Assembly: GCF_000186885.1 (NCBI RefSeq)
Contig: NC_014972.1
Location: 420,001 to 452,000, forward strand
Direction of reading: 5' to 3'
From: Desulfobulbus propionicus DSM 2032
Lineage (GTDB): Bacteria; Desulfobacterota; Desulfobulbia; Desulfobulbales; Desulfobulbaceae
Length of the DNA: 32,000 nucleotides
Position 1 is the stretch's first letter. Each line of letters starts with the position of its first letter. Shown one piece after another: positions 4,288 to 20,514 of this stretch. Below the pieces are notes generated by a model, which searched no databases, was not told the DNA's origin, and saw only the letters and a list, made by a program, of their open reading frames with translations. Position numbers and translations under genes: made by a program.

Positions 4288-4317
4288 GGCCGTCTCTTTA
4301 TTAGAAGTGGTGAGGTT

Positions 4318-4867: not shown

Positions 4868-5311
4868 GTGACCGTTTTGAATCCTAACGACAACTTTTCA
4901 GGCAAAAGAAGTGAAGATTTAACCGGGTACAAATTCACAAAATACGGCGAAAAAAATGTATCAAACGTCAAATGGACCTATGATTTTACCCCGTTAAAAA
5001 AATGGGCTTTATTCATCCTAAGCGCTTGTTTCGTTGGAGCCTTGGGAGCATTATTGATTGGACAAAGACAAAAGATTGAACAGCAAAAAGAAATAGCCAT
5101 CGAAGCGCAAGATGCGCGAAAACATTATCTCCAAAAGATACTTGAGGACGTCAAGCAACAAACCATAGCTGAAGAGCGCCGGAAAAGCATGGCAACCGAA
5201 AACACAGTCGTTGAACCAGCAAAACAACAGCAACCTCGAGGCAAGAAACTGTACAGCTGGGTTAACGAAAATGGTCAAACTGTTTATTCAAATAAGCCGA
5301 AACCAGAATGA
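4868..5311 (+). CDS. Membrane-anchored coiled-coil protein with a DUF4124-like C-terminus (147 aa)
   Basis: A GTG start is preceded by GAGGT. It has one TM segment (WALFILSACFVGALGALLIG), a charged helical region, and the C-terminal motif KLYSWVNENGQTVYSNKP. Confidence 0.5.
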   Translation: MTVLNPNDNFSGKRSEDLTGYKFTKYGEKNVSNVKWTYDFTPLKKWALFILSACFVGALGALLIGQRQKIEQQKEIAIEAQDARKHYLQKILEDVKQQTIAEERRKSMATENTVVEPAKQQQPRGKKLYSWVNENGQTVYSNKPKPE

Positions 5312-5322
5312 ACGTTACCGAA

Positions 5323-5604
5323 TCAGGCCGGTTCAAGCTCCAGGTGAACACGCCGACCTAAAGCCGTTGCAATGTTCACTAAAGCATCCAAGGAGAAACG
5401 AGAGACACGACCACGCAATAAATCATTGATACGGGGTTGAGTCACACCGCAATGCAAGGCGGCATCGGCCTGCTTCCATTCATTGGCTTTAATAATGGCT
5501 GCAATCTGGCGCATCAGTTCAGCCCTTGCCCGAAGATTGGCAGCCTGTTCCGGTGTGTCGGTTAATGCATCCCAAATATTGTTATAGGTTTCCATTTCGA
5601 TCAT
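5323..5604 (-). CDS. higA: HigA-type XRE-family antitoxin (93 aa)
   Basis: It carries an HTH (QADAALHCGVTQPRINDLLRG) and the SLDALVNIATALG tail typical of this antitoxin family. It overlaps the toxin stop by 4 nt. Confidence 0.7.
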   Translation of the reverse strand: MIEMETYNNIWDALTDTPEQAANLRARAELMRQIAAIIKANEWKQADAALHCGVTQPRINDLLRGRVSRFSLDALVNIATALGRRVHLELEPA

Positions 5605-5933
5605 TTGAACACCTTCATCAGTTCAGAGTATCGGAATTTAGCAAGGTCGATATCCTTTCTTGAAGTTGCTTGCGTTTTCTTCTGAAATGCGTGGAGCACA
5701 AACACCGCGTCAGCAAGCCTTGCAGTATAGATAATGCGGAAAGTTCCGGATTCATCCCAGATGCGAATTTCTTCTACTCCTTTGCCGATAGAAGGCATGG
5801 GCTTAAAATCATCTGGCTGTTCCCCTCGTTGCACCTTATCAAGCTGATAACCGGAATCCTGCCGGGCACCCTCCGGAAAGGAACGTAAGCACTTCAAAGA
5901 ATCCCCGAGAAATCGAATCACTTTCATAAACAA
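5601..5933 (-). CDS. higB: HigB / RelE-superfamily toxin (Gp49-like, 110 aa)
   Basis: The motifs GVEEIRIWDESGTFRIIYTARLADAVFVLHAFQKKTQ are typical of phage Gp49/HigB-like toxins. The toxin-first gene order matches HigBA. Confidence 0.7.
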   Translation of the reverse strand: MFMKVIRFLGDSLKCLRSFPEGARQDSGYQLDKVQRGEQPDDFKPMPSIGKGVEEIRIWDESGTFRIIYTARLADAVFVLHAFQKKTQATSRKDIDLAKFRYSELMKVFK

Positions 5934-7814: not shown

Positions 7815-9704
7815 GTGCCCATGCCCACACTCATTGTTTGTCAGGATGCCCACGATTATCGGGTGATCGATTTTGTCGGCTCGGTCACCATCGGTCGCGA
7901 AAACGATAACGACCTTGTGCTGGCCTCACCCCAGGTTTCCCGGCACCATGCATCCGTCGCTCAGCGGGAAAACGGCGACTACATGCTGTTTGATCATGAA
8001 AGTACCAACGGTGTCTGGATGGAGCAGCGCCGGGTCAACGGTGTCCGTCTCGGCCACGGGGCAAGCTTTCGCATCACCAACTTTTCTTTTACCTTCCTTG
8101 ATGAACAGCACGATGACCGCCCTTCGAAAGTGTTTGCCTCGGAGGGCGAGAGCGGGCCGCCTGCACGGCAACGACCGCTGGATTCGGCCACTGTTCTTTT
8201 TAATCGGGGATCGGATTCGGCGGCCGAGGCGCCCGCCGTAGAACGGCCTGCTCCCTTGATGAATGAGGAAACGGTGGCGATGGTACCCCTTGCCAGCCTG
8301 TTTCTCGCCCTGCAGACCATTGACGAGGCCATCACCTTGGGCGAGCGGATTCTGGCTGGCGCCGTGCAGTTGACCGGAGCTGATCGCGGCTTTCTCGCCC
8401 TGCTCAACGAGAAGAACGAACTGTTATACACGGCGACCCACCGGTTCGATCCGCGCAAGGACAGTCTGGAGATCAGCCGGGAGGCGGTTCAACTGGTGAT
8501 GGAGCAATGCCGTTCGATCCGGATCGAAGAGGAGGGACAGGAACGACGCAAGGGCAAGGGCCGAGCCCGCTCGGTGCTCTGTGTGCCGCTGGTGCGCGAG
8601 GACAAGGCGTCCGGCTGCCTGTATCTCGATCACCCAAACGATGCTTTTTTCGACGTTGCGGCGCAGAGCCTTCTCGAAATTCTGGCCTTGCACGGTGCCG
8701 TCCTGCTCGACAATCTCAATAGCCGCCAACGGCTGTTTCGGGAGCGAGAATCCCTCAAATCCCGGCTTGCCTCCAAGGATGAAACCATTGTCAAGAGCGA
8801 GAAAATGGTCAAGCTCTATGAGGATATCCGCACCATTGCCGCCATCAATGTGCCGGTGTTCATCCAGGGCGAGGCCGGCAGCGGCAAGGAGCATGTGGCT
8901 GCGGCGCTGCATGCTTTTTCCCAGCGCAAGGGAGCGTATATCCCTCTGAACTGCTCGGCCATTCCCGAAGGCATTTTTGAAAGCGAGCTGTTCGGTTCAA
9001 AAAAAGGCGCCTTTCACGAGGCGATCGACAAGCCGGGCAAACTGGAATTGGCTGATGGCGGCACCCTGTTTCTCGATGAAGTGGCCGATATGTCCCTTGC
9101 CCTGCAGCCCAAGCTGCTGCGGTTTCTTGAAAACGGCGAGATCACCCGTCTGGGTGATACCCGCAGCCGCCGGTTGGATGTGCGGGTGGTGACCGCCACC
9201 AACCGTGATGTGGCCGCGATGATCCAGGAACATCAATTCCGCGACGACCTGTTCCAGCGGCTTTCCTGCTTTACCCTCAAGGTGCCGCCGTTGCGCGAGC
9301 GGCTGGAGGATATCGAGCCTCTGAGCCATTATTTCCTGGAGAAGTTCTCGGCCGAGTACAATTGGAAAACGCCCCGCCTGACCGAGAGTGCCCTGCAACG
9401 GCTCACCCAGTACCCGTGGCCCGGTAATGTCCGCCAGTTGCGCAACGTGCTGTTGCGCCTCGCCGTTCAGTCCCAGGGCAGAATGATCACCGAGCGTGAT
9501 ATACTGGCTCTCTCCGATGAATTCGGCAGCAAGGAGGAACCGGCACGGATCGAAGTCTTTCCCAGCCTGGAAGAGATGGAGAAGAACCACCTTCGGGCGG
9601 CCCTGGAGCGGGCGGACGGCAACATCTCCGATGCCGCGGCCTTGGTGGGAATCGCCCGTTCCACCTTTTACCAAAAAATGAAAAAGTACGAAATTTCAAT
9701 ATAA
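7815..9704 (+). CDS. FHA-GAF-AAA+ sigma-54-dependent transcriptional activator with a C-terminal Fis-type HTH (629 aa)
   Basis: The FHA domain shows GRENDNDLVLASPQVSRHHASV...STNGVW, and a GAF-like middle region follows. The AAA+ domain has Walker A GEAGSGKE, Walker B TLFLDEV and a GAFHEA loop in place of GAFTGA. The HTH is NISDAAALVGIARSTFYQKMKK. The start is a GTG at 7815, or an ATG at 7821. Confidence 0.9.
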   Translation: MPMPTLIVCQDAHDYRVIDFVGSVTIGRENDNDLVLASPQVSRHHASVAQRENGDYMLFDHESTNGVWMEQRRVNGVRLGHGASFRITNFSFTFLDEQHDDRPSKVFASEGESGPPARQRPLDSATVLFNRGSDSAAEAPAVERPAPLMNEETVAMVPLASLFLALQTIDEAITLGERILAGAVQLTGADRGFLALLNEKNELLYTATHRFDPRKDSLEISREAVQLVMEQCRSIRIEEEGQERRKGKGRARSVLCVPLVREDKASGCLYLDHPNDAFFDVAAQSLLEILALHGAVLLDNLNSRQRLFRERESLKSRLASKDETIVKSEKMVKLYEDIRTIAAINVPVFIQGEAGSGKEHVAAALHAFSQRKGAYIPLNCSAIPEGIFESELFGSKKGAFHEAIDKPGKLELADGGTLFLDEVADMSLALQPKLLRFLENGEITRLGDTRSRRLDVRVVTATNRDVAAMIQEHQFRDDLFQRLSCFTLKVPPLRERLEDIEPLSHYFLEKFSAEYNWKTPRLTESALQRLTQYPWPGNVRQLRNVLLRLAVQSQGRMITERDILALSDEFGSKEEPARIEVFPSLEEMEKNHLRAALERADGNISDAAALVGIARSTFYQKMKKYEISI

Positions 9705-9725
9705 TAAGAATTGAATCGCTTTGCT

Positions 9726-9774
9726 TGTAGGAAAATCGAACAGGCGAACACGCTGTCTGTCCGATTTTCCTACA
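9726..9774 (+). promoter_or_regulatory. Long inverted repeat: activator-gene terminator or enhancer (UAS) for the downstream sigma-54 promoter
   Basis: TGTAGGAAAATCG (9726-9738) and CGATTTTCCTACA (9762-9774) pair perfectly. The repeat is extendable to 19 bp with one mismatch, and each arm reads TGT-N11-ACA. It lies 22 nt after the activator stop and ~210-255 bp upstream of the -24/-12 element. Confidence 0.4.
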
Positions 9775-9836
9775 ATTTGCTCTTTGCCTGAAAATTCCCT
9801 TTTTTCAAGATGATCACTCTTTTTCTCCTCCGCGCT

Positions 9837-9851
9837 GTTCGATTTTCGAAC
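9837..9851 (+). promoter_or_regulatory. Palindrome GTTCGA-TTT-TCGAAC, candidate enhancer-binding site
   Basis: This perfect 6-3-6 palindrome lies ~135 bp upstream of the -24/-12 promoter. Confidence 0.3.
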
Positions 9852-9981
9852 ATTTGCGCGATCCCCCGCAAGGGAACCCCCGAGGGGGTGCCTCCGGTGG
9901 CCATCGCCGGTACAGCTGGCTTGGAAATGATGATGCCATATTTCAGTGTGTTGCGACTCGTTCGCGGCGCAAATCTGCACT

Positions 9982-9997
9982 TGGCACGCTCGTTGCT
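9982..9997 (+). promoter_or_regulatory. Sigma-54 (-24/-12) promoter TGGCACGCTCGTTGCT
   Basis: It matches TGGCACG-N4-TTGCW exactly, with GG at 9983-9984, GC at 9995-9996 and correct spacing. It lies ~75 nt upstream of the first operon ATG (10072) and directly downstream of a sigma-54 activator gene. Confidence 0.75.
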
Positions 9998-10071
9998 TTA
10001 GCTGTGGCAACCAGTTTTGCTGTCTGTCAGCATAAGAACGAACATCAAGCACCTATTTGAGGAGGTTCATC

Positions 10072-10920
10072 ATGAAAAAAACAGTTTTCACAGCCGCTGT
10101 TATCTTTGCTTTGTCCGCCGGAGTTGCCCATGCCGATCATCGTGATCGCGGCGACTCGACGTTGCTGGGTTCTTTCGGCAGCAAACATCGAGGCGGGGCG
10201 ATCCATCACAACACCTTTGCCGCGCAGCCCATCACCAACACCAATTCCAACGTCATCACCATCAATACCTCGGCAACCCAGACCGCCACCCAGACCGCAA
10301 GCGCCACTTCGCCGGTGACCCAGACAACAACTTCCACCTCCACCTCTGACTCCGGCAGCAACGCCACCGCCACCAGCAGCAACACAGACAGTTCCACCAC
10401 CACGGCTGGCACCGATACCTCAGCCTCCACCACCGATTCGACCACGGACAGCACCACGGATACCACGGCGTCGACCACCGACAGCACCGATACCGCCGCT
10501 GACAGCACGGCCGATACCGCGACCGATGCCACCGCCGATGCCACGACCACCAGCGAGCAGAACGACGACCAGGATGGTCTCCAGGCCGAGATCCGCAACG
10601 AAATCAAAGGAGTTGGCAATATCTCCAGCACCATCTCCGGTGGCAACAACAACTTGGCCAACGCCGCCTCCATCTCCGTAGGCGGCAGTGCTCAGAGCAC
10701 TGATTCCATCATCAACAAGGTCAGTTCCGCCGGCAACATCTCCAGTTCGATCAAAGGCGGCAACAACAACCGCGCCAATGCAGCGTCCATCTCCATGGGC
10801 GGCGGCATCGCGGTCAAAGGCCGGGTGATCAACGAGGTTGAGGGCGCCGGCGATATTTCCAGTTCCATCGAGGGCGGCAACAACAACCAGGCTAACGCCG
10901 GTTCCATCGCCATCAACTGA
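10072..10920 (+). CDS. Secreted repeat protein A: signal peptide, Thr/Ser/Asp-rich linker, three 39-aa GGNNNxANAxSI (curlin-like) repeats
   Basis: GAGGAGG lies 6 nt before the ATG at 10072 (the ORF track uses a TTG at 10057). The signal peptide ends AHA. The GGCAACAACAAC motif occurs at 10642, 10759 and 10876, exactly 117 nt apart. Confidence 0.7.
   Translation: MKKTVFTAAVIFALSAGVAHADHRDRGDSTLLGSFGSKHRGGAIHHNTFAAQPITNTNSNVITINTSATQTATQTASATSPVTQTTTSTSTSDSGSNATATSSNTDSSTTTAGTDTSASTTDSTTDSTTDTTASTTDSTDTAADSTADTATDATADATTTSEQNDDQDGLQAEIRNEIKGVGNISSTISGGNNNLANAASISVGGSAQSTDSIINKVSSAGNISSSIKGGNNNRANAASISMGGGIAVKGRVINEVEGAGDISSSIEGGNNNQANAGSIAIN
10267..10554 (+). repeat. Low-complexity Thr/Ser/Asp/Ala-coding tract inside protein A
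   Basis: I count 39 Thr and 20 Ser in 96 residues. The DNA is built from reiterated ACC/ACG/GAC/AGC/GAT units (for example ACCACCGATTCGACCACGGACAGCACCACGGATACCACG). Confidence 0.8.
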
Positions 10921-11009
10921 TGTGCTTCCTCCCTCCGTGTCGCGGTCCGCATGTGCTGCGGCACGGAGTATCCCCTATTGCAAATGTTATCCTTCTGCGG
11001 AGAACCATC

Positions 11010-11603
11010 ATGAAAGTCCTGCATATTCTTACCATCGGCGCCCTGCTGCTGGCACCGGCCCTCAGCCAGGCGGACATGCTCGGCCTGCGCGTCGAGAACC
11101 GGGTCAAGGGCGGCGAGTACAGCGCCCGAACCAAGGGCAACAACAACATCGCCAACGCGGCCTCGATCAACATGACCGGCAGCACGGCGCGCGAGGTCAA
11201 CAATCGGGTTCAGGCCGCCGGCGCGATCTCCGCCTCGGCCACCGGCAACAACAACACCGTCAACAGCGCTTCGGTGCAGATGCAGAACTCGACCGCCGGT
11301 AAAGTGTCCAATACGGTCAAGGTTGATTCCATCGGCAACACGGTGCGGGGCAACAACAACATCTCCAATATCGGTTCGGTGTCGATGCGCAATTCCGCGG
11401 CCGGCGTGGTGACTTCCGAAGTGACCGGAGGTCAGTTGAACGGCGTGATCGACGGCAACAACAACCGCCTCAATGTCGGGTCGGTGCAGATGACCGAGGC
11501 CCAGCGCGGTGAGGTAATGACCAAAACCGATCTCGGCAACGTCTCGGTGTCGATGTCCGGCAGCAATTCCAGCGTGGCCATCGATTCGGTGGTCGCCAAC
11601 TGA
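11010..11603 (+). CDS. Secreted repeat protein B: signal peptide plus five ~35-aa GNNNxxNxxSV (curlin-like) repeats (197 aa)
   Basis: The signal peptide is MKVLHILTIGALLLAPALSQA. GGCAACAACAAC occurs at 11136, 11244, 11349 and 11454 (spacing 108, 105 and 105 nt), followed by one degenerate terminal repeat (SGSNSSVAIDSV). The ORF-track start at 10920 is an upstream extension. Confidence 0.7.
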   Translation: MKVLHILTIGALLLAPALSQADMLGLRVENRVKGGEYSARTKGNNNIANAASINMTGSTAREVNNRVQAAGAISASATGNNNTVNSASVQMQNSTAGKVSNTVKVDSIGNTVRGNNNISNIGSVSMRNSAAGVVTSEVTGGQLNGVIDGNNNRLNVGSVQMTEAQRGEVMTKTDLGNVSVSMSGSNSSVAIDSVVAN

Positions 11604-11623
11604 CAGCGACGGAGGATCATTCC

Positions 11624-11947
11624 ATGCAAACGATCACCGCGACCCTGGTGCTGTCCCTGCTGCTGACGGGAATCTTCCGCGCGGACCCCGTCCGCGCCGA
11701 CGACCTCGATGACGGCATCACCATTGATGATTCGGCCTATTCGTACGGCAATATCAGCAGTTCGAGCCAAAATTTCTCCTATCTCGCCCAGCGGGCGCGG
11801 AGCAAGGCCGCATCGGGGTCCGGTGACGTGGTCCTGTCCGACAGCGGCGCGCTCAACAGCGTCATCCTCGATGCAGGGGCGCAGATCAATGGCGACATCA
11901 TCATCATCGATGATTCTTCGGGCGACAAGACCGTTATTTCCAATTAA
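11624..11947 (+). CDS. Small secreted hypothetical protein (107 aa)
   Basis: It has a GGAGGA RBS and the signal peptide MQTITATLVLSLLLTGIFRADPVRA. The mature part is Asp/Ser/Ile-rich. It sits where a curli accessory factor would, but I recognise no similarity. Confidence 0.55.
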   Translation: MQTITATLVLSLLLTGIFRADPVRADDLDDGITIDDSAYSYGNISSSSQNFSYLAQRARSKAASGSGDVVLSDSGALNSVILDAGAQINGDIIIIDDSSGDKTVISN

Positions 11948-11966
11948 TCCAGCGTGAGGGACGAGC

Positions 11967-13460
11967 ATGCCGTTTGTGACCATCAGACCCCGATCCCGGC
12001 GAGCGCCGGGCCTTTTGCTGTTGATGCTGCCGCTGGTTTTCCTGGGGCTGACCTCCTGCTCCTCGATTGACCCGCGCCAGGTGGATGTTGATCTGCCGTC
12101 GGACATGCCGGAGGTCAAGGAAACCAGCTTCGACAAGCCGCTGGCCGAATTGGGGCGGATGACCCAGATCTACGGCAAGCGGGCTTATATTCAGGGCAAG
12201 GATATCACCGACTTCACCGGCCTTTCCACCTATGGGTACGGTGAGATCCCGCGTGACATCACCGAGATGACCAAAAGCGCGCTCAACGCCATCGGCGGCA
12301 ACGTGGTCTACATCCCCTACAGTCCGGTGTTCATCAACAACCAGATGGTGACCGGTTATTCCAATTTCCAGGGCAAGCTGATTCCCGATGTCGTCCTCTC
12401 CGGCGGCATCACCGAATTTGACCGGGGCCTGGAAACCAGGGGCAGCAACACCGATTTCGGTGTGACCACCAAACCGTTCAACGTCAACGAATCCTGGGTG
12501 CCAGGCGATACCATATCCCTCGATTACAACCAGGAAGATCAGGATAGCCTGGCCCGGATCACCCTTGATTTCAACCTGCTCGATTTCCAGACCATGTCTG
12601 GCGTGGCCCGCATGCAGACGGTCAACACCATCAACGTCTACAAGGCGGTCAAGGAAAAAGAGCTCGGCTTTACCATCTTTGGCCCGACCTTCGGCCTCAA
12701 GGGCACGGTCAAGAAGGTGCAGGGCCGGCATGCGGCCATCCGTCTGCTGGTCCAGACCAGTGTGCTGCAGATCGTCGGCAAATACCTCTATCTGCCCTAC
12801 TGGAAGCTGATCCCCAACATGAAGCCCGATCCAGTGGTGCTCGACAAGATCCGTCAGGATTTCCGCAACCTGAGCCAAACCGACAAGGTCGGCGAAATGC
12901 AGACCTGTCTCTACCTCAAGGGGTACAATGTGCCAGTTACCGGCCAGCTCGATGCCCAGACCCAGTCCGCTCTGACCAGCTTCAAGCAGCAGTATGCAGT
13001 CCAGGGGGCGGGTGACGCCGAATTGTATGTCGCGCTGTGGAGTTCACTGGGTGACAACATGGAGCAGGTATCCTATCGCCGCGAACTGCTGGCCAGGGCC
13101 TTGGAGAATCCAAGCCAGCAGGCGGCGGTCGCCAAGGCGCCGGCGAAGAAGGAACCGGCCAAAGAGGTGGCCAACAGGGCGGCTGCACCTTCCGAGAAGG
13201 TGGCGACCCGCAAGGCGGCCGACAAATCCAGCGGGAAAAAGGATGTTCCGGCCCAGCGACGGGCCAGTTCCGGCCCGGCTGCCGTGGCCAGCACCGCGCC
13301 ATCCGAGATCAAGGCCGCAGGATCGGTCTCGAAAGAATCGACTCCTGTCAACCAGGACAAGGATCGCAACGACATCGCCCAGGTGTTGCGTAGTCAGCCG
13401 GTCCTGGGGAATAAAAATTCAGCGGAGGCAATGATCAATGAAAGGCGCATGGCCGAATAA
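11967..13460 (+). CDS. CsgG/HfaB-family outer-membrane lipoprotein fused to a peptidoglycan-binding-like domain and an Ala/Lys/Pro-rich tail (497 aa)
   Basis: The lipobox is LGLTSC. CsgG-like blocks are present (DITEMTKSALNAIGGNVVYIPY, DVVLSGGITEFDRGLE, ITLDFNLLDFQT, and AAIRLLVQTSVLQIVGKYL). A PG_binding_1-like segment follows (MQTCLYLKGYNVPVTGQLDAQTQSALTSFKQQY). Confidence 0.7.
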   Translation: MPFVTIRPRSRRAPGLLLLMLPLVFLGLTSCSSIDPRQVDVDLPSDMPEVKETSFDKPLAELGRMTQIYGKRAYIQGKDITDFTGLSTYGYGEIPRDITEMTKSALNAIGGNVVYIPYSPVFINNQMVTGYSNFQGKLIPDVVLSGGITEFDRGLETRGSNTDFGVTTKPFNVNESWVPGDTISLDYNQEDQDSLARITLDFNLLDFQTMSGVARMQTVNTINVYKAVKEKELGFTIFGPTFGLKGTVKKVQGRHAAIRLLVQTSVLQIVGKYLYLPYWKLIPNMKPDPVVLDKIRQDFRNLSQTDKVGEMQTCLYLKGYNVPVTGQLDAQTQSALTSFKQQYAVQGAGDAELYVALWSSLGDNMEQVSYRRELLARALENPSQQAAVAKAPAKKEPAKEVANRAAAPSEKVATRKAADKSSGKKDVPAQRRASSGPAAVASTAPSEIKAAGSVSKESTPVNQDKDRNDIAQVLRSQPVLGNKNSAEAMINERRMAE

Positions 13461-13758
13461 TTTCGGAGGCGGTTTGCTGGCGGGGGGGCTGGTGGTCCTG
13501 TTGGCCGGTCTGCTCATGGGAGCGGTTCATCACGATCCGCCTTCCCTGCCGGTGGCGGTGCTCGACCCGCAGGTGGAACGGCCCGTGCCCCTTGCCAGCA
13601 ATGGTCGTTATCAGATTGTCACCTGGCAGGGCGGCGGCGGATACGGGGCCTTTGTCCTCGACACCGCGACCGGCACCACCAAGGTCGCCTACAGCTCGAT
13701 CAAAGGACCGGGTGGCAAAAGCGTCAACAATATCGGCAAACCCTTTGCCCAGATGTAA
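13438..13758 (+). CDS. Small membrane-anchored hypothetical protein (106 aa)
   Basis: It has a GGAGG RBS and one N-terminal TM segment (GGLLAGGLVVLLAGLLMGAV). It overlaps the upstream gene by 23 nt. Confidence 0.5.
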   Translation: MKGAWPNNFGGGLLAGGLVVLLAGLLMGAVHHDPPSLPVAVLDPQVERPVPLASNGRYQIVTWQGGGGYGAFVLDTATGTTKVAYSSIKGPGGKSVNNIGKPFAQM

Positions 13759-13768
13759 GGAGTATGCA

Positions 13769-14950
13769 ATGCAGTGCAGTGATCGGACGGAGGAGTTGAA
13801 AATGAAGTGGTGGCAAAAGTTGCAACCCGTGGCTGCGGAGTTGATCATCCTGGCGCTAGTGCTGGCTGCTGTGCTGGCGGCCAACCTCGGCCATGCGGCC
13901 ACAGCCGGTGGCCCGGCGCAGGGGTATGGATTGAAGATCTTCCGCGTGGAGTCGGGACTGTATCCCTTTGTTCATGTCTACATGCGCACCTTTGACCAGG
14001 AAATGAATCCCCTGGTCAACCTCAACGTGCTCAACATCGGGGTGATGGTCGAGGGACGGGCCTACGATCCGAGAAAAAAACAGTATGTCATTCAACCGTT
14101 GCGCAACCGGGAGGAAGCGACCCGCTCCATCCTGGTGCTCGACACCAACAAGATGCTGAAGGGGCAGGATTTTGAAGCCATGATCCGGGCAGCGGCCCGG
14201 TTCATCGACGCCAAGCGGCCCCAGGATCAGGTGGCCCTGATCGCCCTGGACAACAGTGGCGAGGGATATACGGTCTTGTCCAATTTCGACCGCGAACCGG
14301 GCATCCTCGGTCGGCGGCTGGCCGATCTGCAGCCGCGCGGCGACAAGACCAGGCTCTACGACGGGGTGGCGGCCGCCATGCAGATGGCCGGTGGCGCGGT
14401 GGGCGGCGATTCCTCCAGCGAGGTGGAATACATTGTTTCGACCTCGATCATCGTGCTGGGGAGCGGCCGGGATGACGACAGCGCCATCAGCCGTTCCGAT
14501 CTGATGACCCGCATTTCCAGCCTGAAAATTCCGGTGCCGATCTATTCGTTGTGCTTTACCGGTCCCGAGGGCAAGGATCAGCGCAACCTGCAGGCCCTGT
14601 CGAAGAATTCCTTCGGCAAGTACTACTCCATTGGCGGCGCCTACGACACCATCACGCGCAATATCGAGGATATTCAAAACATCATGCAGAGCGACTACGT
14701 GCTCACCTTCCGGGCCTACATTCCGGTGGACGGCGGCAGGCACAATGTCAAGATCGGGGTCGAATATCCGACCGGCAGCGGCATCATGTACTATGACGCC
14801 TCCGTGTTCGAGGCCATCGAACCGCCGACCTTCCCCCGGATCATCGAGGCGCAGCAGAAGCTCGACAAGGCGATCCCCGCGCTCAAGGATGAGGAATTGT
14901 ATCTGAAAAATCCTTACGCTCCGGCGGCGGTACCGGGCGGGAAAAGCTGA
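13769..14950 (+). CDS. Exported or membrane-anchored von Willebrand factor A (VWA) domain protein
   Basis: The VWA pattern is SILVLDTNKMLKG...VALIALDN...GDKTRLYDG...IIVLGSGRDDDS, and the MIDAS position reads DTNKM rather than DxSxS. The ATG at 13769 has an AAGGAG RBS. The alternative ATG at 13802 (MKWWQK...) also has a GGAGGAG RBS. The ORF-track start at 13592 overlaps the previous gene. Confidence 0.7.
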   Translation: MQCSDRTEELKMKWWQKLQPVAAELIILALVLAAVLAANLGHAATAGGPAQGYGLKIFRVESGLYPFVHVYMRTFDQEMNPLVNLNVLNIGVMVEGRAYDPRKKQYVIQPLRNREEATRSILVLDTNKMLKGQDFEAMIRAAARFIDAKRPQDQVALIALDNSGEGYTVLSNFDREPGILGRRLADLQPRGDKTRLYDGVAAAMQMAGGAVGGDSSSEVEYIVSTSIIVLGSGRDDDSAISRSDLMTRISSLKIPVPIYSLCFTGPEGKDQRNLQALSKNSFGKYYSIGGAYDTITRNIEDIQNIMQSDYVLTFRAYIPVDGGRHNVKIGVEYPTGSGIMYYDASVFEAIEPPTFPRIIEAQQKLDKAIPALKDEELYLKNPYAPAAVPGGKS

Positions 14951-15051
14951 TCCTGTCCTTCGGCGTGGATTGATAGCGCAACACGGTTCTTGTGCAGCCT
15001 CCGACCGCCCTCCCGAGCACCCGGGGGCTGCACTTTTATTCTCCTCATCGC

Positions 15052-17667
15052 ATGGCATCCTCCAGGCATCATTCTTCCCCCAGCGAACATACCGCTTATT
15101 TGGCAGCCAGGGCTGCCGGATGCGCCCATCGGGAGTATTGTCTCACCTCGGCGAGCACAACCATCGGACGCGATGGCACCCTCTGCGACATTGTCCTTAC
15201 CGGCGCCACTGTCTCGCGCCGCCACGCCTGCTTATCTCGAACGGGTGAAACCGACTATCAGCTCCACGATCTCCAGTCCACCAACGGAGTATTTGTCAAC
15301 GGCGAGCGGATTAAGGGTTCGCGCTTTCTGCGTGATGGCGACCTGATCGGGCTTGGCACCGCCCTGCCGCATCTGCGTTTCCAATATCACAGCATCCGGG
15401 AACCGCATCACCTGATTCTGCCACCCCAGGCCCAGTGGCTGATCGGCCGGGCTCCCCACTGCGATCTCTCCCTGCCCTTCGAGCCAACGGTCAGCTCCCA
15501 CCATGCCACCCTCAGTAGCCAAGATGGCACACTGCGAATCGCCGACGCCCACAGCCTCAATGGAACCTGGGTCAACGGCTCGAACCGGTTCAAGGCGTTC
15601 CTTGCCCCCGACGACACCGTGGTCATCGGGTCCACGCATTTCCAGTTCCGTCTCCGGGAGGACGGTTCGCTGTCCGTGCTCCAACGGGAATATGGCCAGT
15701 CGGTCAAACTGGAATGTGTCGGTCTCCACCGCACCGCCCCGCGTGCGAACGGCACGGCGAGAATGCTGCTCAACGACATCACTCTGAGCATTGAACCCGG
15801 CGAATTTGTAGGTATTCTCGGCCCTTCGGGCGCGGGCAAGACTACCCTGCTCACCGCCCTCAATGGTTTCAGCCGTCCGGACCGGGGGTGGGTGCTGTGC
15901 AACGAGACGCCCATGGACAGCGCCTCGGCCCTGTTCCGCAACACCATCGGCTATGTGCCCCAGGATGATATTCTCCACCGGGAGTTGAGCGTGCAGGCCA
16001 GCCTTGAATATGTCGCCCGCCTGCGGTTGTCGCCGGATCTTTCTCCACGCCAACGTGCCGAGATCATCGACAACACGATCGAAACCCTTGGATTGCACCC
16101 GGTGCGGCACCTGCCGATCGACCAACTGAGCGGCGGCCAGCGAAAACGGGTGTCCATCGGCGCGGAGCTGCTGGTTCGCCCAAGCCTGCTCTTCCTCGAC
16201 GAGCCCACCTCAGGACTGGATCCCAGCACCGAGGACCGGCTGATGCATCACTTCCGGGACATGGCCGACCACGGCACCACGGTGATCATTACCACCCACC
16301 TGCTCGACAACCTCGACCTGCTGGACAAGGTGGTGATTCTCGCCCAGGGACGGGTGGTCTTCTTCGGCGCCCCCTCCGAGGCCCTAACCTTCTTCGGCAC
16401 GGAGCAGCAGCCCCTTGCCCGGGCAACCGGTATCTTCGCCGTGCTCACCGAGGCGGACACCCCGTCCTCGGCAGCGGCATCCTCCTGGAAAGGGCAGGAG
16501 GAGATCGCCACCCATCATGCCGCCCGTTTCCTCGCCTCTCCCTGGTTTCGGCAACATATCGAACAGCGGCTTTCGCCGGCAGCCCACGCGTGCATGGCCA
16601 TGGATACCGCCTCCCCCTCTCGGCCGCTAGCACGGCTGCGCACCCTGTGGGCCGATCGTTCACGGCGCGGCCATGGTTTTTCTCCTGGCGAATGGCTGCG
16701 TTCCTGGTGCATTCTTTCGCGTCGCCACCTGCACATCCGTGCCAGTGCCGGCAAACGGCTGCTGCTGTTCCTGCTCATTCCCATGGCGCTGGCCCTGGTG
16801 ACCCTGTCGCAGCATATCCCTGGCGTGGCCAGCGACGCGGTAGTGGCGGAACGGAGGGCCGAAATAGAGGCCCTGGTTGCCCCAGGCGGCGCCCTGATGG
16901 ACACGCAGCTCAAGCTCCTCCTGTCTCCGGCCGGCATTGGCGAAACCCGTTCGGGCGCTGAATTGCTCCACGCCCTGCGTTACGAAGGCATCGCGCATTT
17001 GCCGGTTCCCATGAGCGTCTTGCTGATGATCGTCATGACCGCCGTGTTTTCCGGCACCCTGATCGCCTGTCAGGAAATTTCCACCGAGCGGTCGATTTAC
17101 CTCCGGGAGCGGATGTCCCATCTGCGCATCCTGCCGTACCTTGGGGCGAAAATGCCTTTTTGCCTGGGGCTTGCCGCCCTGCAGTGCCTGATCTTTCTCT
17201 CCCTGTGCTGGCTCAACCCCGCCCTGCGCCAGGCGGATTTCTTTCCGGTCTGGCTGACCATGGTCGCCGTGGCCTGGAGTTCGGTGGCCATTGGGCTGAC
17301 CCTGAGCGCTGTTGATCCGACCGGCGGCCGGTTGTCGGTGATGCTGACCGTGGCCGTGGTCCTGCCGCAGTTGCTGCTTTCCGGCGGCCTCGGTCCTGAT
17401 TTTTACGGGCGCATGCACGGCCCGCTGCGCCTGGCGGCGGATCTGCTGCCGGCCCGCTGGGGGCTGGAGATGGTGTGCACCGCGCTGTTCGATACACTCA
17501 AGGGCGAGGGCGCGCGATGGATTCCAGCCTTTGTCCGTGAGGTGATAGGTTTTGACTTCGGCCAGGGCGTCTATTATAGTGGCATGATCTTTCTGTTGGC
17601 TCAATTCCTGCTTTGGGTGCTGTTCTGCACAGGATTCCTGACTTACCGCGATAGACGATCATGTTGA
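15052..17667 (+). CDS. FHA-FHA-ABC ATPase-ABC-2 permease fusion (Rv1747-type exporter)
   Basis: It has two FHA domains (TIGRDGTLCDIVL...SRRHACL...STNGVFVNG and LIGRAPHCDLSL...SSHHATL...SLNGTWVNG). The ATPase shows Walker A GPSGAGKTT, signature LSGGQRKRVSIG and Walker B LLFLDEPTSGLD. The C-terminus is multi-TM. The start is uncertain, either the ATG at 15052 or the GTG at 14992. Confidence 0.85.
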   Translation: MASSRHHSSPSEHTAYLAARAAGCAHREYCLTSASTTIGRDGTLCDIVLTGATVSRRHACLSRTGETDYQLHDLQSTNGVFVNGERIKGSRFLRDGDLIGLGTALPHLRFQYHSIREPHHLILPPQAQWLIGRAPHCDLSLPFEPTVSSHHATLSSQDGTLRIADAHSLNGTWVNGSNRFKAFLAPDDTVVIGSTHFQFRLREDGSLSVLQREYGQSVKLECVGLHRTAPRANGTARMLLNDITLSIEPGEFVGILGPSGAGKTTLLTALNGFSRPDRGWVLCNETPMDSASALFRNTIGYVPQDDILHRELSVQASLEYVARLRLSPDLSPRQRAEIIDNTIETLGLHPVRHLPIDQLSGGQRKRVSIGAELLVRPSLLFLDEPTSGLDPSTEDRLMHHFRDMADHGTTVIITTHLLDNLDLLDKVVILAQGRVVFFGAPSEALTFFGTEQQPLARATGIFAVLTEADTPSSAAASSWKGQEEIATHHAARFLASPWFRQHIEQRLSPAAHACMAMDTASPSRPLARLRTLWADRSRRGHGFSPGEWLRSWCILSRRHLHIRASAGKRLLLFLLIPMALALVTLSQHIPGVASDAVVAERRAEIEALVAPGGALMDTQLKLLLSPAGIGETRSGAELLHALRYEGIAHLPVPMSVLLMIVMTAVFSGTLIACQEISTERSIYLRERMSHLRILPYLGAKMPFCLGLAALQCLIFLSLCWLNPALRQADFFPVWLTMVAVAWSSVAIGLTLSAVDPTGGRLSVMLTVAVVLPQLLLSGGLGPDFYGRMHGPLRLAADLLPARWGLEMVCTALFDTLKGEGARWIPAFVREVIGFDFGQGVYYSGMIFLLAQFLLWVLFCTGFLTYRDRRSC

Positions 17668-19085
17668 ACGACGACATCCAGACGCTGATCGACCCCAGCG
17701 TTGTCCAGCCGCTCAAGGCCGTGGCGGTCAGCGACAGTGGCGTGCTGATCGCCGACCGGTATCGGATGCTGCGACCGCTTGGCGAAGGAGGCATGGGCAA
17801 TGTCTACTTGGCCGAGGATCTGGTGTTGGCGCGGCGCGTGGCGATCAAGACCATTCGGCCGGAGTTGAGCGGCAACGAAGAGATCCGCTCGCGCATCAAG
17901 CGTGAATGCCGCATGCATGCGGCCATTGGCGTCCATCCCCATATCATCACCCTCTACGACTCGGTCGAGGAAAACGGGCATATCTACCTGGTGATGGAGT
18001 ATTTTGCCGGCGAGACCCTGGCCGCTCGGCTTGCCTCGCAAACTGGCGAGCAAGGCCTCCCGCTGGACCAGACGCTCGATATCGTCCGCCAGGTACTCCG
18101 CGCCTTGGCCTGCATCCATGACCAGGGGATCGTCCATCGCGACATCAAGACCGCCAACATCCTCCTCCAGCAGGGGACCGACGGCAATCTGCGCGTCAAG
18201 CTCGCCGATTTCGGCATTGCCCGGGCGGGGATGGCGGCGCAAACCGTGACCCGCCTGACCGCTCTGGATGTTCAAGGGCCGGGGACGCCGGTGTACATGG
18301 CGCCGGAGCGGATCGACCCGCAGACCTTCGGCGGGGTCTGTCCCGCTTCGGACCTTTACGCGGTGGGCATCATCCTCTTTGAACTGCTCACCGGACACCC
18401 CCCCTTCACCGGCTCCATGACCGAGATTTTTTCCGGCCATCTGGTCCAGCCGCCGTGCCTGGACCGCCTGCCAGCCACGCTTCCCCCCACGGTACTGGCG
18501 GTTCTTCGCACCGCCTTGGCCAAACAGCCATCGGAGCGGTTTCAGCGCGCCCAGAGCTTTCTTGAAACCTTGGAGGGGGGGCACCCGAGCTTGGACCATG
18601 CCTTCATTCCGCCCCGGGCACCCTCCCACCCGCCGGTTCACGCTCAGACGCTCTTGGCCGTGTCGGCGGAACCGACGGCGCAAAGCGAGTCCGTTACCCT
18701 ACTGAACCCGTCGTGCGGGGCTGGCCGTGGCTCAGATCCTTCGCGGCGATGGCGGCAAGGGTTGATGTATGCGGCACTGGCCTGCGTGCTGGTGCTTGTC
18801 AGCGGATGGTATCTGTACGATCATTTTGTCACCCCATCCTTGACCGCCTCTGCGCCCGTCAACAGCCAAGAAATCACCACGACGGGATCCGAAAAGGACA
18901 CGGTTGCCGTCCCTGCCAGCGTTCCGGACGACATCGAGGCGGCCAAAACCGTCACCGCCTTGCAGACGTTGGAAAAGGTCCGGCAGCAAAAAACCATCGA
19001 ATCCATGGCCGCCGCCGAGCGCCCCGGGGGCAATCCGGCAAACGAGTGGCAGGTGATCGAAGACCGCTCGCGAAGAATACGCTGA
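17661..19085 (+). CDS. Hanks-type Ser/Thr protein kinase with one TM segment and a short extracytoplasmic tail (474 aa)
   Basis: Kinase motifs are GEGGMGNVY, VAIK, HRDIKTANILL, DFGIAR and GTPVYMAPE. The TM segment is LMYAALACVLVLVSGWYLY. It overlaps the ABC gene by 7 nt. Confidence 0.9.
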   Translation: MLNDDIQTLIDPSVVQPLKAVAVSDSGVLIADRYRMLRPLGEGGMGNVYLAEDLVLARRVAIKTIRPELSGNEEIRSRIKRECRMHAAIGVHPHIITLYDSVEENGHIYLVMEYFAGETLAARLASQTGEQGLPLDQTLDIVRQVLRALACIHDQGIVHRDIKTANILLQQGTDGNLRVKLADFGIARAGMAAQTVTRLTALDVQGPGTPVYMAPERIDPQTFGGVCPASDLYAVGIILFELLTGHPPFTGSMTEIFSGHLVQPPCLDRLPATLPPTVLAVLRTALAKQPSERFQRAQSFLETLEGGHPSLDHAFIPPRAPSHPPVHAQTLLAVSAEPTAQSESVTLLNPSCGAGRGSDPSRRWRQGLMYAALACVLVLVSGWYLYDHFVTPSLTASAPVNSQEITTTGSEKDTVAVPASVPDDIEAAKTVTALQTLEKVRQQKTIESMAAAERPGGNPANEWQVIEDRSRRIR

Positions 19086-19099
19086 CCCACCCTTTGCTC

Positions 19100-19657
19100 A
19101 TGTCAGGTAAATTGGTCCTCGTTGTTCTTGCTGTCGGCAGCTTGCTTCTTGGCGGCTGCGCGCCCCTGGTGTTCACCGCCGGGGCCGGAACCGGATACGT
19201 GGCGACGCAGGATAAACCGCGGAACAAGATCGAGGCCTTTTTTGACGATCTGGCCAGATCAATCCGGCAAACGACCCGCAAGATCACCGGGGCTCCCCCC
19301 AGCCGGCGGAAAAGCACCGCCAAGCCGACGTCCACATTGCAGCTGGCCATTCAAAAAGCCACTCTCTCCCCGGCCAAGGTCCGCACCGGCGATCAAATTA
19401 CCCTGACCCTGCGCTACAGCATTGCCGGTGCGCCGAAAAAAGGGATCCAGGTTCGAGAGAAAAGTTCCTTGTCCAAGGACGGCAAGACGTTGAGTCTCTT
19501 GAAGGACGAATCCTCGCAACGGGAAAACGGGGTGTGGGAAAATACCTTGTCTTTCGCGGTCCCCCAATCGGCTAAACCGGGCAGCTACACTGTGACCATG
19601 CGGATCAGCGCCCAAGGCCTGAACCGGAACGTCCGAAAGACCTTTACCGTCCAGTGA
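19100..19657 (+). CDS. Lipoprotein with a beta-sandwich-like C-terminal domain (185 aa)
   Basis: The lipobox is in MSGKLVLVVLAVGSLLLGGC. The ORF-track start at 18713 is an Arg-rich extension overlapping the kinase gene. No clear RBS is present. Confidence 0.55.
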   Translation: MSGKLVLVVLAVGSLLLGGCAPLVFTAGAGTGYVATQDKPRNKIEAFFDDLARSIRQTTRKITGAPPSRRKSTAKPTSTLQLAIQKATLSPAKVRTGDQITLTLRYSIAGAPKKGIQVREKSSLSKDGKTLSLLKDESSQRENGVWENTLSFAVPQSAKPGSYTVTMRISAQGLNRNVRKTFTVQ

Positions 19658-19713: not shown

Positions 19714-20514
19714 ATGGAGCTCCTTGAGGGGCATTGCCGCATGGGCGGTTTCCAGGTCGTCTATGCCGGGGCAACCGATCCGGGGCGAGTGCGTCGCTGC
19801 AATGAAGACAATCTGCTGATCTATCCCGAAGCCGGCGTCTTTGCCGTGGCCGACGGGCTGGGTGGGTTGGATGCGGGAGATGTTGCCAGCAGCACGGCGC
19901 TCGCGCATCTGCGAGAGCTTGTCCCGACCCCTTTCGCCGGCAACAGGTTTTTTGCCTTGTTCAACGACAAACACCCATTGCGGCAACTTGAAGCGGTGGT
20001 GGCCGCGGTCAATCGCCGAACCTATGAGCATCGAATGACCCTGGGCAAGAACATGGCCACCACCTTGGCCATGGTGCAGCTGCGAGGCGACAAGGTCGTG
20101 CTTGCCCACGTCGGTGACAGCCGCGTCTATCGCTGGCGCGACAATGCATTGCACTGTCTCACCAGCGACCATTCCTTGGTCAATGAACTGGTGCGGAAAG
20201 GGGCCTTGACTGCTTCCCAGGCCAGACAGTCCTCCCAGCGCCACGTCATCACCCGCGCGGTCGGCGCGGAACCGACCGTCATGCCCACCTTGCAACAACA
20301 GCCGCTGGCGGTAGGCGACATCCTGCTGCTGTGCACCGACGGGTTGACCAGTATGCTGTCGGACAGGGACATCGGTCAATGCCTTGGTAACGCGGCCACC
20401 ACCATCGGCGGCAGCGTGGCGCAACTCATCACCTTGGCCAACCAAGCTGGTGGGCATGACAACATCACCGTGGTGGGCGTGATCCTGCTGCCGATAGAAG
20501 AGAAGTCGGATTGA
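19714..20514 (+). CDS. PP2C-family Ser/Thr phosphatase (266 aa)
   Basis: Motifs are RRCNEDN, FAVADGLGG, AHVGDSRVY, LLLCTDGL and GGHDNITVV. Confidence 0.9.
   Translation: MELLEGHCRMGGFQVVYAGATDPGRVRRCNEDNLLIYPEAGVFAVADGLGGLDAGDVASSTALAHLRELVPTPFAGNRFFALFNDKHPLRQLEAVVAAVNRRTYEHRMTLGKNMATTLAMVQLRGDKVVLAHVGDSRVYRWRDNALHCLTSDHSLVNELVRKGALTASQARQSSQRHVITRAVGAEPTVMPTLQQQPLAVGDILLLCTDGLTSMLSDRDIGQCLGNAATTIGGSVAQLITLANQAGGHDNITVVGVILLPIEEKSD

Follow-up and report, generated by a model that had tools for sequence, protein, structure and literature searches.

A conserved Desulfobulbus propionicus operon pairing 35–39-residue repeat proteins with a CsgG-like lipoprotein: a candidate curli-like fiber system

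A stretch of 32,000 nucleotides from Desulfobulbus propionicus DSM 2032 (contig NC_014972.1, positions 420,001 to 452,000; hereafter the window) encodes two neighboring exported proteins, A and B, both ending in tandem Asn-rich repeats, which raises the question of whether they are subunits of an extracellular fiber and, if so, of which kind. To our knowledge, curli and Fap are the only well-characterized dedicated systems for functional-amyloid export in Gram-negative bacteria, and they share neither the subunit repeat nor the outer-membrane channel. The conserved sigma-54 operon in which A and B are encoded and the CsgG-fold lipoprotein nearby point to a curli-like fiber system that has not been described. 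We propose, at a probability of roughly 0.6, that A and B are subunits of such an extracellular curli/Fap-like system (type-VIII-like, nucleation-precipitation) that relies on its own repeat family and accessory proteins. The features of the locus are collected in Table 1.

Table 1. Features of the repeat-protein locus, in positions of the window
Feature	Position	Strand	Evidence and remarks
Sigma-54 enhancer-binding activator, FHA - GAF - AAA+ - Fis-type HTH	7815..9704	+	Pfam Sigma54_activat 2.8e-57, FHA 2.8e-16, GAF_2 6e-11, HTH_8 6.6e-15
Predicted sigma-54 (-24/-12) promoter TGGCACGCTCGTTGCT	9982..9997	+	75 nt upstream of gene A
Gene A, exported repeat protein, 282 aa	10072..10920	+	Signal peptide, ~155-aa linker, three C-terminal 39-aa repeats (DNA 10588-10917)
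Gene B, exported repeat protein, 197 aa	11010..11603	+	Signal peptide, then five repeats: four of 35-36 aa and a degenerate last one (DNA 11085-11600)
Gene C, exported protein, 107 aa	11624..11947	+	Motifs DLDDGI, NxxF(I/Y), GDIIIIDxSxGDKT
Gene D, lipoprotein, 497 aa	11967..13460	+	CsgG-like fold ~30-290, PG_binding_1-like ~300-345, disordered Ala/Lys/Pro-rich tail
Gene E, 106 aa, N-terminal membrane anchor or signal	13438..13758	+	GRYQ...GAFVxDTxTGETK...GKPF domain; 23-nt overlap with D
Membrane-anchored VWA-domain protein	13802..14950	+	Pfam VWA_2 4.1e-7; start set from orthologue comparison
ABC transporter, FHA-FHA-NBD-ABC2 membrane domain	14992..17667	+	Pfam FHA 4.5e-34 (2 stretches), ABC_tran 1.1e-30, ABC2_membrane 4.2e-12
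Hanks-type Ser/Thr protein kinase	17661..19085	+	Pfam Pkinase 4.4e-51; 7-nt overlap with ABC gene
Putative lipoprotein, 185 aa, LLGGC lipobox	19100..19657	+	Translation
PP2C-type Ser/Thr phosphatase	19714..20514	+	Pfam PP2C_2 6.2e-12; also in locus L003

We recounted the 12-mer GGCAACAACAAC in the window and found seven copies, every one on the + strand: three in gene A at 10642, 10759 and 10876 (spacing 117 and 117) and four in gene B at 11136, 11244, 11349 and 11454 (spacing 108, 105 and 105), exactly as the earlier note had claimed. Dinucleotide-preserving shuffles yielded a mean of 0.01 matches, and none of 100 reached seven. In the translations, GNNN occupies residues 196, 235 and 274 of A (period 39) and residues 44, 80, 115 and 150 of B (periods 36, 35 and 35), with a degenerate fifth copy, GSNS, at residue 185 of B. 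The tandem units of 35–39 residues are rich in Asn, Gly, Ser, Ala and Val and share the near-invariant positions xVxNxVxxxGxISxxIxGxNNxANxxSIxM; in both proteins the C-terminus falls exactly behind the final repeat. The consensus put forward in the earlier note fits gene A well; gene B has diverged further. Tandem Repeats Finder detected no DNA-level array at the repeat genes, so the repeat copies must be less than about 70% alike at the DNA level, and the repeat is thus a feature of the proteins, together with one conserved 12-mer. A chance or low-complexity artifact was considered and rejected because the repeats belong to a conserved family, with conserved synteny and a promoter, as described below.

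The starts of A (ATG 10072) and B (ATG 11010) correct those given previously; a GGAGG-type ribosome-binding site precedes each, and the resulting lengths agree with those of the orthologs. Predicted Sec signal peptides, plausible on inspection, open both proteins: MKKTVFTAAVIFALSAGVAHA, followed by D, in A and MKVLHILTIGALLLAPALSQA, followed by D, in B. Translations and signal peptides thereby bear out the view of A and B as paralogous exported proteins made from one periodic repeat. The supposed extra domain of A, on the other hand, proved to be a low-complexity, Thr/Ser/Ala/Asp-rich linker of ~155 residues, which varies between ~40 and 250 aa across orthologs. Total length in the orthologs of A ranges from 156 to 378 aa, with three repeats in 24 of 27 loci; orthologs of B measure 196–206 aa and carry four scored repeats in all 27. 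The pairing of a constant B with a variable A, first noticed as a five-repeat/three-repeat split, is kept in 27 of 27 Desulfobulbaceae-type loci.

In profile scans, neither A nor B belonged to a Pfam or NCBIfam family or matched a PDB sequence. Among 1.84 billion cluster representatives, a two-repeat profile recovered 257 at E<=1e-3, a rare, coherent family, and close homologs of B number only five among 5.8 billion clusters. Across 124 family proteins the period is 34–39 aa with a mode of 36; autocorrelation amounts to +1.80 at lag 36 and to −0.52, the background level, at lag 18, and no sub-period of 18–23 aa was detected. Many members consist of a signal peptide and merely two repeats, ~72 mature residues; this is too little to form a solenoid that is stable as a monomer, which speaks for stacking. 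Fusions of the module to S8 peptidase, FecR-like and DUF2807 domains also occur.

Could A and B be true, diverged curli subunits (CsgA/CsgB orthologs), and the locus an ordinary curli operon? Such a view would fit the presence, next to a CsgG-fold lipoprotein, of a paralogous pair of repeat proteins that are rich in Asn, Gly, Ser and Ala and carry signal peptides. However, Pfam scans at E<=1 found Curlin_rpt (PF07012) in neither A nor B, nor in two distant members of the family, the repeat proteins of Trichloromonas and of a Desulfobacteraceae MAG. The curlin consensus S-X5-Q-X-G-X-G-N-X-A-X3-Q (repeat 19–23 aa) is found in 5 of 5 CsgA repeats and in 0 of 124 family proteins, which have a period of 36 aa with nothing at half that length. 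Compared by hhalign, the repeat profile reached a probability of 1% with E. coli CsgA, and P values of 0.05–0.08 with curlin (0.075 against the aligned CsgA/CsgB repeats). The remaining genes speak against curli as well: relatives of CsgC, CsgE and CsgF were not recognized, and the Pfam CsgG model misses D. In a survey of curli systems, Deltaproteobacteria contributed a single one, from Desulfovibrionales (PMC3521004). We reject an ordinary curli operon because the sequence-level curlin tests all failed, and grant curlin membership next to no probability; the suggestion that the repeats form a family distinct from curlin stands.

The AlphaFold model of B, built on five sequences, is all-beta, and its regular strand pattern recurs from repeat to repeat, but its confidence is moderate (pLDDT 72) and its neighbors among fibrils in a Foldseek search of the PDB are not significant: the FapC fibril (E 3.4e-3, probability 0.11, TM 0.12–0.14) and the CsgA fibril (E 0.09), below which only parallel beta-helices are listed. 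The best neighbors as a whole have TM values of 0.1–0.2, below significance, and the word solenoid is used here on the basis of the strand pattern and the kind of neighbors.

In period and motif flavor, sequence comparison places the repeat closer to those of Fap than to those of curlin, although it fails the published Fap pattern. The minimal Fap repeat, X15-G-X4-N-X3-G-X6-N-X7, spans ~39 aa, the same length class as ours, and FapB measures 196 ± 14 aa against 196–206 aa for the orthologs of B (PMC3792158). Type-II family members read ANIAIGxxNxANMGS where FapC reads GANIAAGSGNQQDNAAA; the repeat profile aligns with three FapC repeats over 17 columns (hhalign P 0.0027), better than with curlin; and the FapC fibril is the best Foldseek neighbor of the B model. 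These likenesses would be accounted for if A and B were very divergent FapB/FapC homologs in an operon that had exchanged the FapF barrel for a CsgG-like channel. We regard this as quite improbable. The core pattern G-X4-N-X3-G-X6-N is present in 3 of 3 FapC UK4 repeats (sequences taken from PDB 9nqd/9u4u) and in 0 of 124 family proteins, A and B included; the profile did not retrieve FapC from PDB sequences at E<=10; and the probability of the hhalign match is 11%, in keeping with the low Foldseek values above. Moreover, the repeats of A and B are contiguous, without Fap linkers, and Pfam scans assigned each ORF from 7815 to 20514 to another family or to none, recognizing no Peptidase_C39 (FapD-like) and no ORF as FapA, FapE or FapF.

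The analogy to curli drawn in the earlier note gains strong independent backing from gene D, two genes downstream in conserved synteny. The Cys of its LTSC lipobox, Cys31, is invariant in 46 homologs. In the AlphaFold model an alpha/beta core is predicted at pLDDT >90, and the predicted hairpin regions at low pLDDT. When this model was compared with the PDB using Foldseek, ranks 1–5 were all CsgG (E 3e-6 to 2e-5), in alignments of ~240–270 columns including gaps to CsgG chains of 234–253 residues, membrane-bound conformers included. CsgG accounts for 23 of the 28 matches at E<=0.001, the other five being FlgT (rank 6, E 2.7e-5), the LPHT ring and CT253, with PelC and LPP20-like proteins further down the ranking. 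D has insertions exactly at the two transmembrane hairpins of CsgG, and its strand pairs 142–168 and 183–236 coincide with the positions of TM1 and TM2. An hhalign comparison with E. coli CsgG gave a weak, co-linear match (P ~0.002, probability 7–11%) that brings into register the lipobox Cys, the DxTG and GxIxx(Y/F)(E/D) motifs and both hairpin regions. The Pfam CsgG model did not match D, and an HMM of the 46 homologs did not find CsgG among PDB sequences. By signal, predicted core and hairpin insertions, D is a CsgG-like lipoprotein, the likeness being one of fold only.

The same superfold can be read in another way, in which A and B would be non-fibrillar beta-helical proteins of the envelope or surface (adhesins, coat or periplasmic structural proteins), and D, instead of a secretion pore, a scaffold lipoprotein of the CsgG/FlgT/PelC/LPP20 superfold, anchored to peptidoglycan, by which they are organized or tethered. 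Non-pore lipoproteins share this superfold, and FlgT, PelC and LPP20-like proteins all score with D; D also carries a weak PG_binding_1 match (0.0024, Pfam), and the low pLDDT of its hairpin regions agrees with such a role. In addition, the repeat module, in its fusions to S8 peptidase, FecR-like and DUF2807 domains, resembles an anchoring tag, and in type-II loci there are also genes for an LPP20-like lipoprotein and a DUF2807 beta-helix protein. Against this, CsgG outranks the rest of the superfold near full length, the insertions sit precisely where CsgG crosses the membrane, the ~72-residue subunits are hard to explain as stable monomers, and a paralog pair with a strict repeat ladder is typical of stacking subunits. 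On balance we consider the scaffold role unlikely, though it deserves serious weight, and favor a fiber system with D as its candidate channel.

The operon itself appears to be sigma-54-dependent, to judge from the predicted -24/-12 promoter and the adjacent AAA+ activator gene. The promoter is the sole exact match to TGGCAC-N5-TTGCW in the window (0.05 expected), and 25 of 29 type-I (Desulfobulbaceae) loci have TGGCA[CT]-N5-TTGCT upstream of gene A; in type-I loci the FHA-GAF activator gene likewise adjoins the repeat genes. Gene C, for which 79 distinct homologs were aligned, always lies directly 3' of the repeat gene(s), an order that persists where the pair has been relocated downstream of D; gene E is conserved in both locus types. 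Neither C nor E matched a Pfam or NCBIfam family, and for D the same scans gave nothing beyond the weak PG_binding_1 match. Compared by hhalign, the C and E family alignments reached probabilities of at most 0.4% with E. coli CsgC, CsgE and CsgF, only the signal peptides being aligned, and showed no relationship to the repeat profile. The 185-aa putative lipoprotein, which has no Pfam match, has a similar counterpart of 185 aa at the same position in the D. alkaliphilus locus.

To evaluate conservation of the arrangement, loci were counted from both ends. Starting from D, 72 of 80 species-level genome loci show repeat gene(s), C and D in synteny, with one or more repeat genes on the same strand; truncated contigs make up four of the remaining eight. 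Starting from the repeats, 32 metagenome loci had a downstream flank of 2.5 kb or more, and 22 of them showed the order repeat–C–D, a count valid for type-II-like repeats since the closer type-II subset of the alignment served as query; D is absent nearby in the other 10, and some small gammaproteobacterial repeat genes also stand with no D nearby. The core of repeat gene(s), C, D and E is kept across Desulfobulbales, Desulfobacterales, Desulfuromonadales/Geobacterales, Nitrospirota and some Gammaproteobacteria. Cultured carriers include Desulfobulbus elongatus DSM 2908, D. alkaliphilus DSM 24258, Trichloromonas acetexigens and Geomonas sp. Red32. To this core the Desulfobulbaceae operon adds the sigma-54 promoter, FHA-GAF activator, FHA-ABC transporter, Ser/Thr kinase and PP2C phosphatase, the FHA-ABC/kinase pair being confined to Desulfobulbaceae-type loci. 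Literature searches on CsgG in Desulfobulbus/Desulfobulbaceae, on DUF4384 and amyloid, and on systems resembling CsgG returned no publication describing this cluster. The single paper that names both CsgG and Desulfobulbus deals with MafA, a different protein.

Based on these observations, we infer fiber formation, amyloid properties and export through D, and propose the following sequence of events. A and B would be exported across the inner membrane by Sec and kept unfolded in the periplasm, where C may serve as chaperone or cap. D, as an oligomeric channel fixed to peptidoglycan, would then let them through the outer membrane, and on the cell exterior they would stack as a parallel beta-solenoid in which each repeat contributes one 36-residue layer and Asn, Gly and Ser form ladders. 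B, given its constant length and five repeats, would be the likely bulk subunit, and A, given its three repeats and variable Thr/Ser-rich tail, a likely minor subunit, surface-exposed or acting as nucleator or adaptor; this division between major subunit and nucleator/adaptor is a guess. Expression would be turned on by the adjacent FHA-GAF sigma-54 activator, and the FHA domains of the activator and of the FHA-FHA-ABC transporter may read phospho-threonine marks set by the Ser/Thr kinase of the cluster and removed by its PP2C phosphatase.

A bolder reading, whose chances we place a little short of even, is that the locus represents a third, independent class of dedicated bacterial functional-amyloid/fiber machinery, in which a CsgG-fold channel with its own peptidoglycan anchor would be combined with a new family of 36-residue solenoid repeats and the new accessory proteins C and E in ~200 species of anaerobic sulfate- and metal-reducers and their relatives, wired in Desulfobulbaceae to a kinase/PP2C/FHA and sigma-54 switch. 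The new repeat would be unrelated in sequence to curlin, would lie outside the Fap definition and could serve as a portable docking module by which S8 protease, FecR-like and DUF2807 domains join the fiber.

If a fiber system of this kind is indeed encoded here, the CsgG channel would be a general exporter of stacking beta-solenoid subunits and not specific to curli, and the repeat would offer a natural comparison for the way in which solenoid geometry is determined by repeat length and ladder residues. The product would probably be a matrix or adhesion fiber of sulfate reducers, Desulfuromonadales/Geobacterales and Nitrospirota, in which matrix proteins are hardly known and which matter in sediment biogeochemistry, corrosion biofilms and syntrophic aggregates. 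Control by sigma-54, FHA domains and a Ser/Thr kinase would provide a testable regulatory logic for fiber production, and the short two-repeat subunits would be attractive as minimal blocks for engineered amyloid materials.

Finally, we compared the cluster with known systems. With curli (E. coli csgBAC/csgDEFG; type VIII) it shares two paralogous Sec-exported Asn/Gly/Ser/Ala-rich proteins with contiguous, linker-free repeats, a CsgG-fold lipoprotein with a lipobox Cys, a DxTG-type motif and two hairpin insertions in the CsgG register, and an operon that includes small exported accessory proteins. It differs from curli in the repeat (35–39 aa with no half-period, failing both consensus and Curlin_rpt, versus 19–23 aa in curlin), in a D protein that escapes the Pfam CsgG model and bears an extra PG_binding_1-like domain and disordered tail, in accessory proteins C and E unrelated to CsgC/E/F, and in regulation, which involves sigma-54, an FHA-GAF activator, a Ser/Thr kinase and PP2C here and CsgD/RpoS in curli. 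The likeness to Fap (Pseudomonas fapABCDEF) lies in the repeat length class (~36–39 aa), the motif flavor N-[IV]-A-[AI]-G-x-x-N, a paralogous subunit pair with one member of ~196–200 aa, and the FapC fibril as nearest, non-significant, structural neighbor of the B model. Unlike Fap, the cluster has no G-X4-N-X3-G-X6-N pattern, no linkers between repeats and no FapD-type C39 peptidase recognized by Pfam, and its channel candidate is a CsgG-fold lipoprotein as opposed to the trimeric FapF barrel.

In the Caulobacter holdfast anchor HfaA/HfaB/HfaD, HfaA is curlin-like and HfaB, a member of the Pfam CsgG family, is CsgG-like. Compared by description, that system also combines a CsgG-type lipoprotein with small secreted proteins, which in Hfa form a stable multimer, extracellular or associated with the outer membrane; here, in contrast, D misses the Pfam CsgG model, and A and B have no curlin- or HfaA-type match. 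Mycobacterium tuberculosis Rv1747 is an FHA-FHA-ABC exporter regulated by the Ser/Thr kinase PknF. The ABC transporter of our cluster matches it in architecture (FHA-FHA-NBD-ABC2), and its gene is translationally coupled to that of the Hanks-type kinase, but, unlike Rv1747/PknF, this pair is embedded in a predicted sigma-54 operon together with a CsgG-like lipoprotein and repeat proteins.

Seven copies of the 12-mer GGCAACAACAAC are present in the window, all of them on the + strand; 0.01 copies would be expected. As the earlier note had described, three copies lie in gene A (10642, 10759 and 10876, 117 nt apart) and four in gene B (11136, 11244, 11349 and 11454, spaced 108, 105 and 105 nt). 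On translation, each copy encodes a Gly-Asn-Asn-Asn turn; gene A contains three repeat units of 39 residues, and gene B four units of 35–36 residues and a degenerate fifth (GSNS). At the DNA level the array escapes Tandem Repeats Finder, and the repeat is therefore conserved at the protein level. Between 10642 and 11465, the same four codons, GGC AAC AAC AAC, encode all seven turns, although the flanking repeat DNA has diverged below the detection of this program; codon preference, or selection acting at the turn, may account for this. By inspection, both A and B carry the typical Sec signal peptides assigned to them in the earlier reading. The "extra domain" ascribed to A is actually a low-complexity linker, since the stretch preceding the repeats is rich in Thr, Ala and Ser and very variable in length among type I loci (defined below).

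Features of the window, and family proteins in which the repeat is fused to other domains (window coordinates unless a locus is named)
Feature	Position	Strand	Details
Zot/pI morphogenesis protein	1865-2713	-	Pfam Zot 2.3e-7; phrog_1675 "protein I of M13" 1.8e-12
CI-like repressor	4390-4797	+	
phrog_2523 protein	5601-5933	-	4.4e-34
FHA-GAF sigma-54 activator	7815-9704	+	upstream of A
Gene A	10072-10920	+	282 aa; start from ribosome-binding site and orthologue lengths
Gene B	11010-11603	+	197 aa; start from ribosome-binding site and orthologue lengths
Gene C	11624-11947	+	107 aa, exported protein
Gene D	11967-13460	+	lipoprotein
Gene E	13438-13758	+	23-nt overlap with D
Domain-fused repeat members	L089 2038-4029 (P0169)		P0169; P0178, P0190, P0194, P0235, P0237; P0261

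A and B have no match in Pfam, NCBIfam or PDB sequences, and only five close homologues of B are found among 5.8 billion protein clusters. In the consensus of aligned units from the window and related loci, xVxNxVxxxGxxSAxIxxGxxNxANxGSxx, the Asn, Gly, Asn and Ser positions are near-invariant. Searched exhaustively with HMMER, a two-repeat profile matches 257 representatives (E ≤ 1e-3) out of 1.84 billion, which makes the family a small but genuine one. Its smallest architecture is a signal peptide with exactly two repeats (about 93 aa); others hold 3 to 15 repeats. Across 124 proteins of the family, drawn from 78 loci, repeat starts lie 34–39 residues apart (mode 36). The C-terminus directly follows the last repeat in 72/116 family proteins (...G-x-x-N-x-A-N-M-G-S-V-x-V-[E/K/N]). 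Repeats are also fused to a FecR-like domain or DUF2807, the 36-aa module being C-terminal to either, or to a subtilisin-like S8 peptidase, where it is N-terminal and the gene lies beside an ECF sigma factor gene; in these fusions the module resembles a portable tag for docking or anchoring.

Downstream of E follow a VWA protein, an FHA-FHA-ABC transporter, a Ser/Thr kinase, a small lipoprotein and a PP2C phosphatase. An exact sigma-54 promoter lies upstream of A at 9982–9997 (0.05 expected in the window); 25 of 29 related loci have it in front of A too. The D/E overlap (13438–13460), which has the same length in another locus, L001 (6639–6661), suggests translational coupling. The gene of the ABC exporter, which has two FHA domains at its N-terminus, overlaps that of the Hanks Ser/Thr kinase by 7 nt and is translationally coupled to it. 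With the small lipoprotein and phosphatase that follow, this pair occupies 14992–20514; it is present in Desulfobulbaceae-type loci only, and its architecture is that of mycobacterial Rv1747/PknF. Together with the activator, the kinase, PP2C and FHA-ABC set suggests a phospho-threonine switch over the whole cluster. The C-terminus of protein C (...GDKTxVVE or ...GDKTVISN) resembles the ...MGSVxV[E/K/N] ends of the repeat proteins (e.g. A, 10920, and B, 11603) and could be a shared recognition or stacking element; hhalign does not detect C as a homologue of the repeat. Elsewhere in the window, 71–5933 is an Inovirus-like prophage remnant, in which the flanking ORFs (71–1477 and 1474–1881, - strand) have no family match.

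D has more than 788 homologues, mainly in Desulfobulbus, Desulfobulbaceae, Desulfobacterales and Desulfuromonadales. Neither Pfam nor an HMM search of PDB sequences recognises CsgG, the curli channel, in its sequence, and hhalign of D with CsgG is weak (P about 0.002), yet co-linear along the whole CsgG chain and in register at the lipobox Cys, DxTG, GxIxx(Y/F)(E/D) and both hairpin insertions. In an AlphaFold model (46 sequences; core pLDDT above 90), the five best PDB structural neighbours are CsgG (E 3e-6 to 2e-5, about 240–270 aligned columns), which makes up 23 of the 28 matches at E ≤ 0.001. The other five comprise FlgT (rank 6), the LPHT ring and CT253, with PelC and LPP20-like lipoproteins at lower ranks. 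The main rival explanation makes D a scaffold lipoprotein that forms no pore, in the manner of FlgT and PelC, and takes A and B for envelope proteins that build no fibre. Beyond its CsgG-like part, D contains a PG_binding_1-like domain and a disordered tail.

Scanning one genome per species located relatives of D in 201 of 185,579 species; 80 loci were kept, and all their ORFs were labelled by HMM. At least one repeat gene (R) lies on the same strand as D in 72/80 loci, and four of the eight lacking one are contigs truncated upstream. Type I loci (Desulfobulbaceae, including the window) have the order activator, A, B, C, D, E, VWA, FHA-ABC, kinase; B has 196–206 aa and four scored repeats in 27/27 loci, and A three repeats in 24/27. 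Type II loci (R, sometimes two, C, D, 102-aa protein, LPP20-like lipoprotein, E, DUF2807) occur in Desulfobacterales, Desulfuromonadales/Geobacterales, Nitrospirota and some Gammaproteobacteria. In these, a second lipoprotein (weak LPP20 match, 3.4e-5; e.g. L004 10729–11469, L005 10743–11492), a coiled-coil-like protein of 102–132 aa and a DUF2807 beta-helix protein stand where type I has its VWA, ABC and kinase genes. C is always directly 3' of the repeat gene, even where an R-C pair is downstream of D. A repeat-first metagenome scan found R-C-D in 22 of 32 loci having at least 2.5 kb of downstream flank, the remaining ten encoding mostly long multi-domain repeat proteins. Small two-repeat members of gammaproteobacterial type (Ca. 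Thioglobus-like, ...ASTGSVTIE) at L087 377–667 and L088 640–930 are orphans, with no CsgG-like gene within the available flank; given these and the ten metagenome cases without a nearby D, the link between the repeat and D is not an exclusive one.

It is highly probable that A and B are exported and that their function is coupled to that of a CsgG-fold lipoprotein; we assign a probability of about 60% to a secretion-coupled, curli/Fap-like fibre system whose subunit family and accessories are new. The mechanism we propose builds on the observed signal peptides, repeat architecture, operon structure, CsgG-fold neighbour, synteny, and sigma-54 promoter and activator. A and B would cross the inner membrane by Sec, pass unfolded through a channel formed by a D oligomer and tethered to peptidoglycan, and stack outside the cell into a solenoid fibre, with B the putative bulk subunit and A a minor, surface-exposed or nucleating one; C may serve as chaperone, cap or nucleator. 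Control would be exerted through phospho-threonine signalling by the kinase and PP2C, with the FHA domains in the activator and ABC transporter as its readers. We found no description of the A–E cluster in the literature searched.

A curli survey lists a single system in Deltaproteobacteria, in Desulfovibrionales (PMC3521004). The curlin consensus matches 5/5 CsgA repeats vs 0/124 family proteins, hhalign of the repeat with CsgA gives 1% probability, and C and E are unrelated to CsgC/E/F. Sequence autocorrelation over the 124 proteins peaks only at 36 and 72, with lag 18 at background, and the 36-residue unit is therefore not two curlin-like halves. The HMM check against amyloid families proposed in the earlier note gave no Curlin_rpt match and, for Fap, only 11% hhalign probability; its suggestion of a distinct repeat family rather than curlin is upheld, and A and B are rejected as curlin members. 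Membership of Fap is likewise improbable: the minimal Fap pattern as published (PMC3792158) matches 3/3 FapC repeats vs 0/124 family proteins, a profile search of the PDB with the repeat does not retrieve FapC, and no Fap accessory genes are recognised among the cluster ORFs. Fap does share the repeat length class (about 39 aa), and FapC GANIAAGSGNQQDN (verified from PDB chains) resembles the family motif ANIAIGxxNxAN. On these comparisons the repeat family belongs to neither, although it most plausibly works like both.
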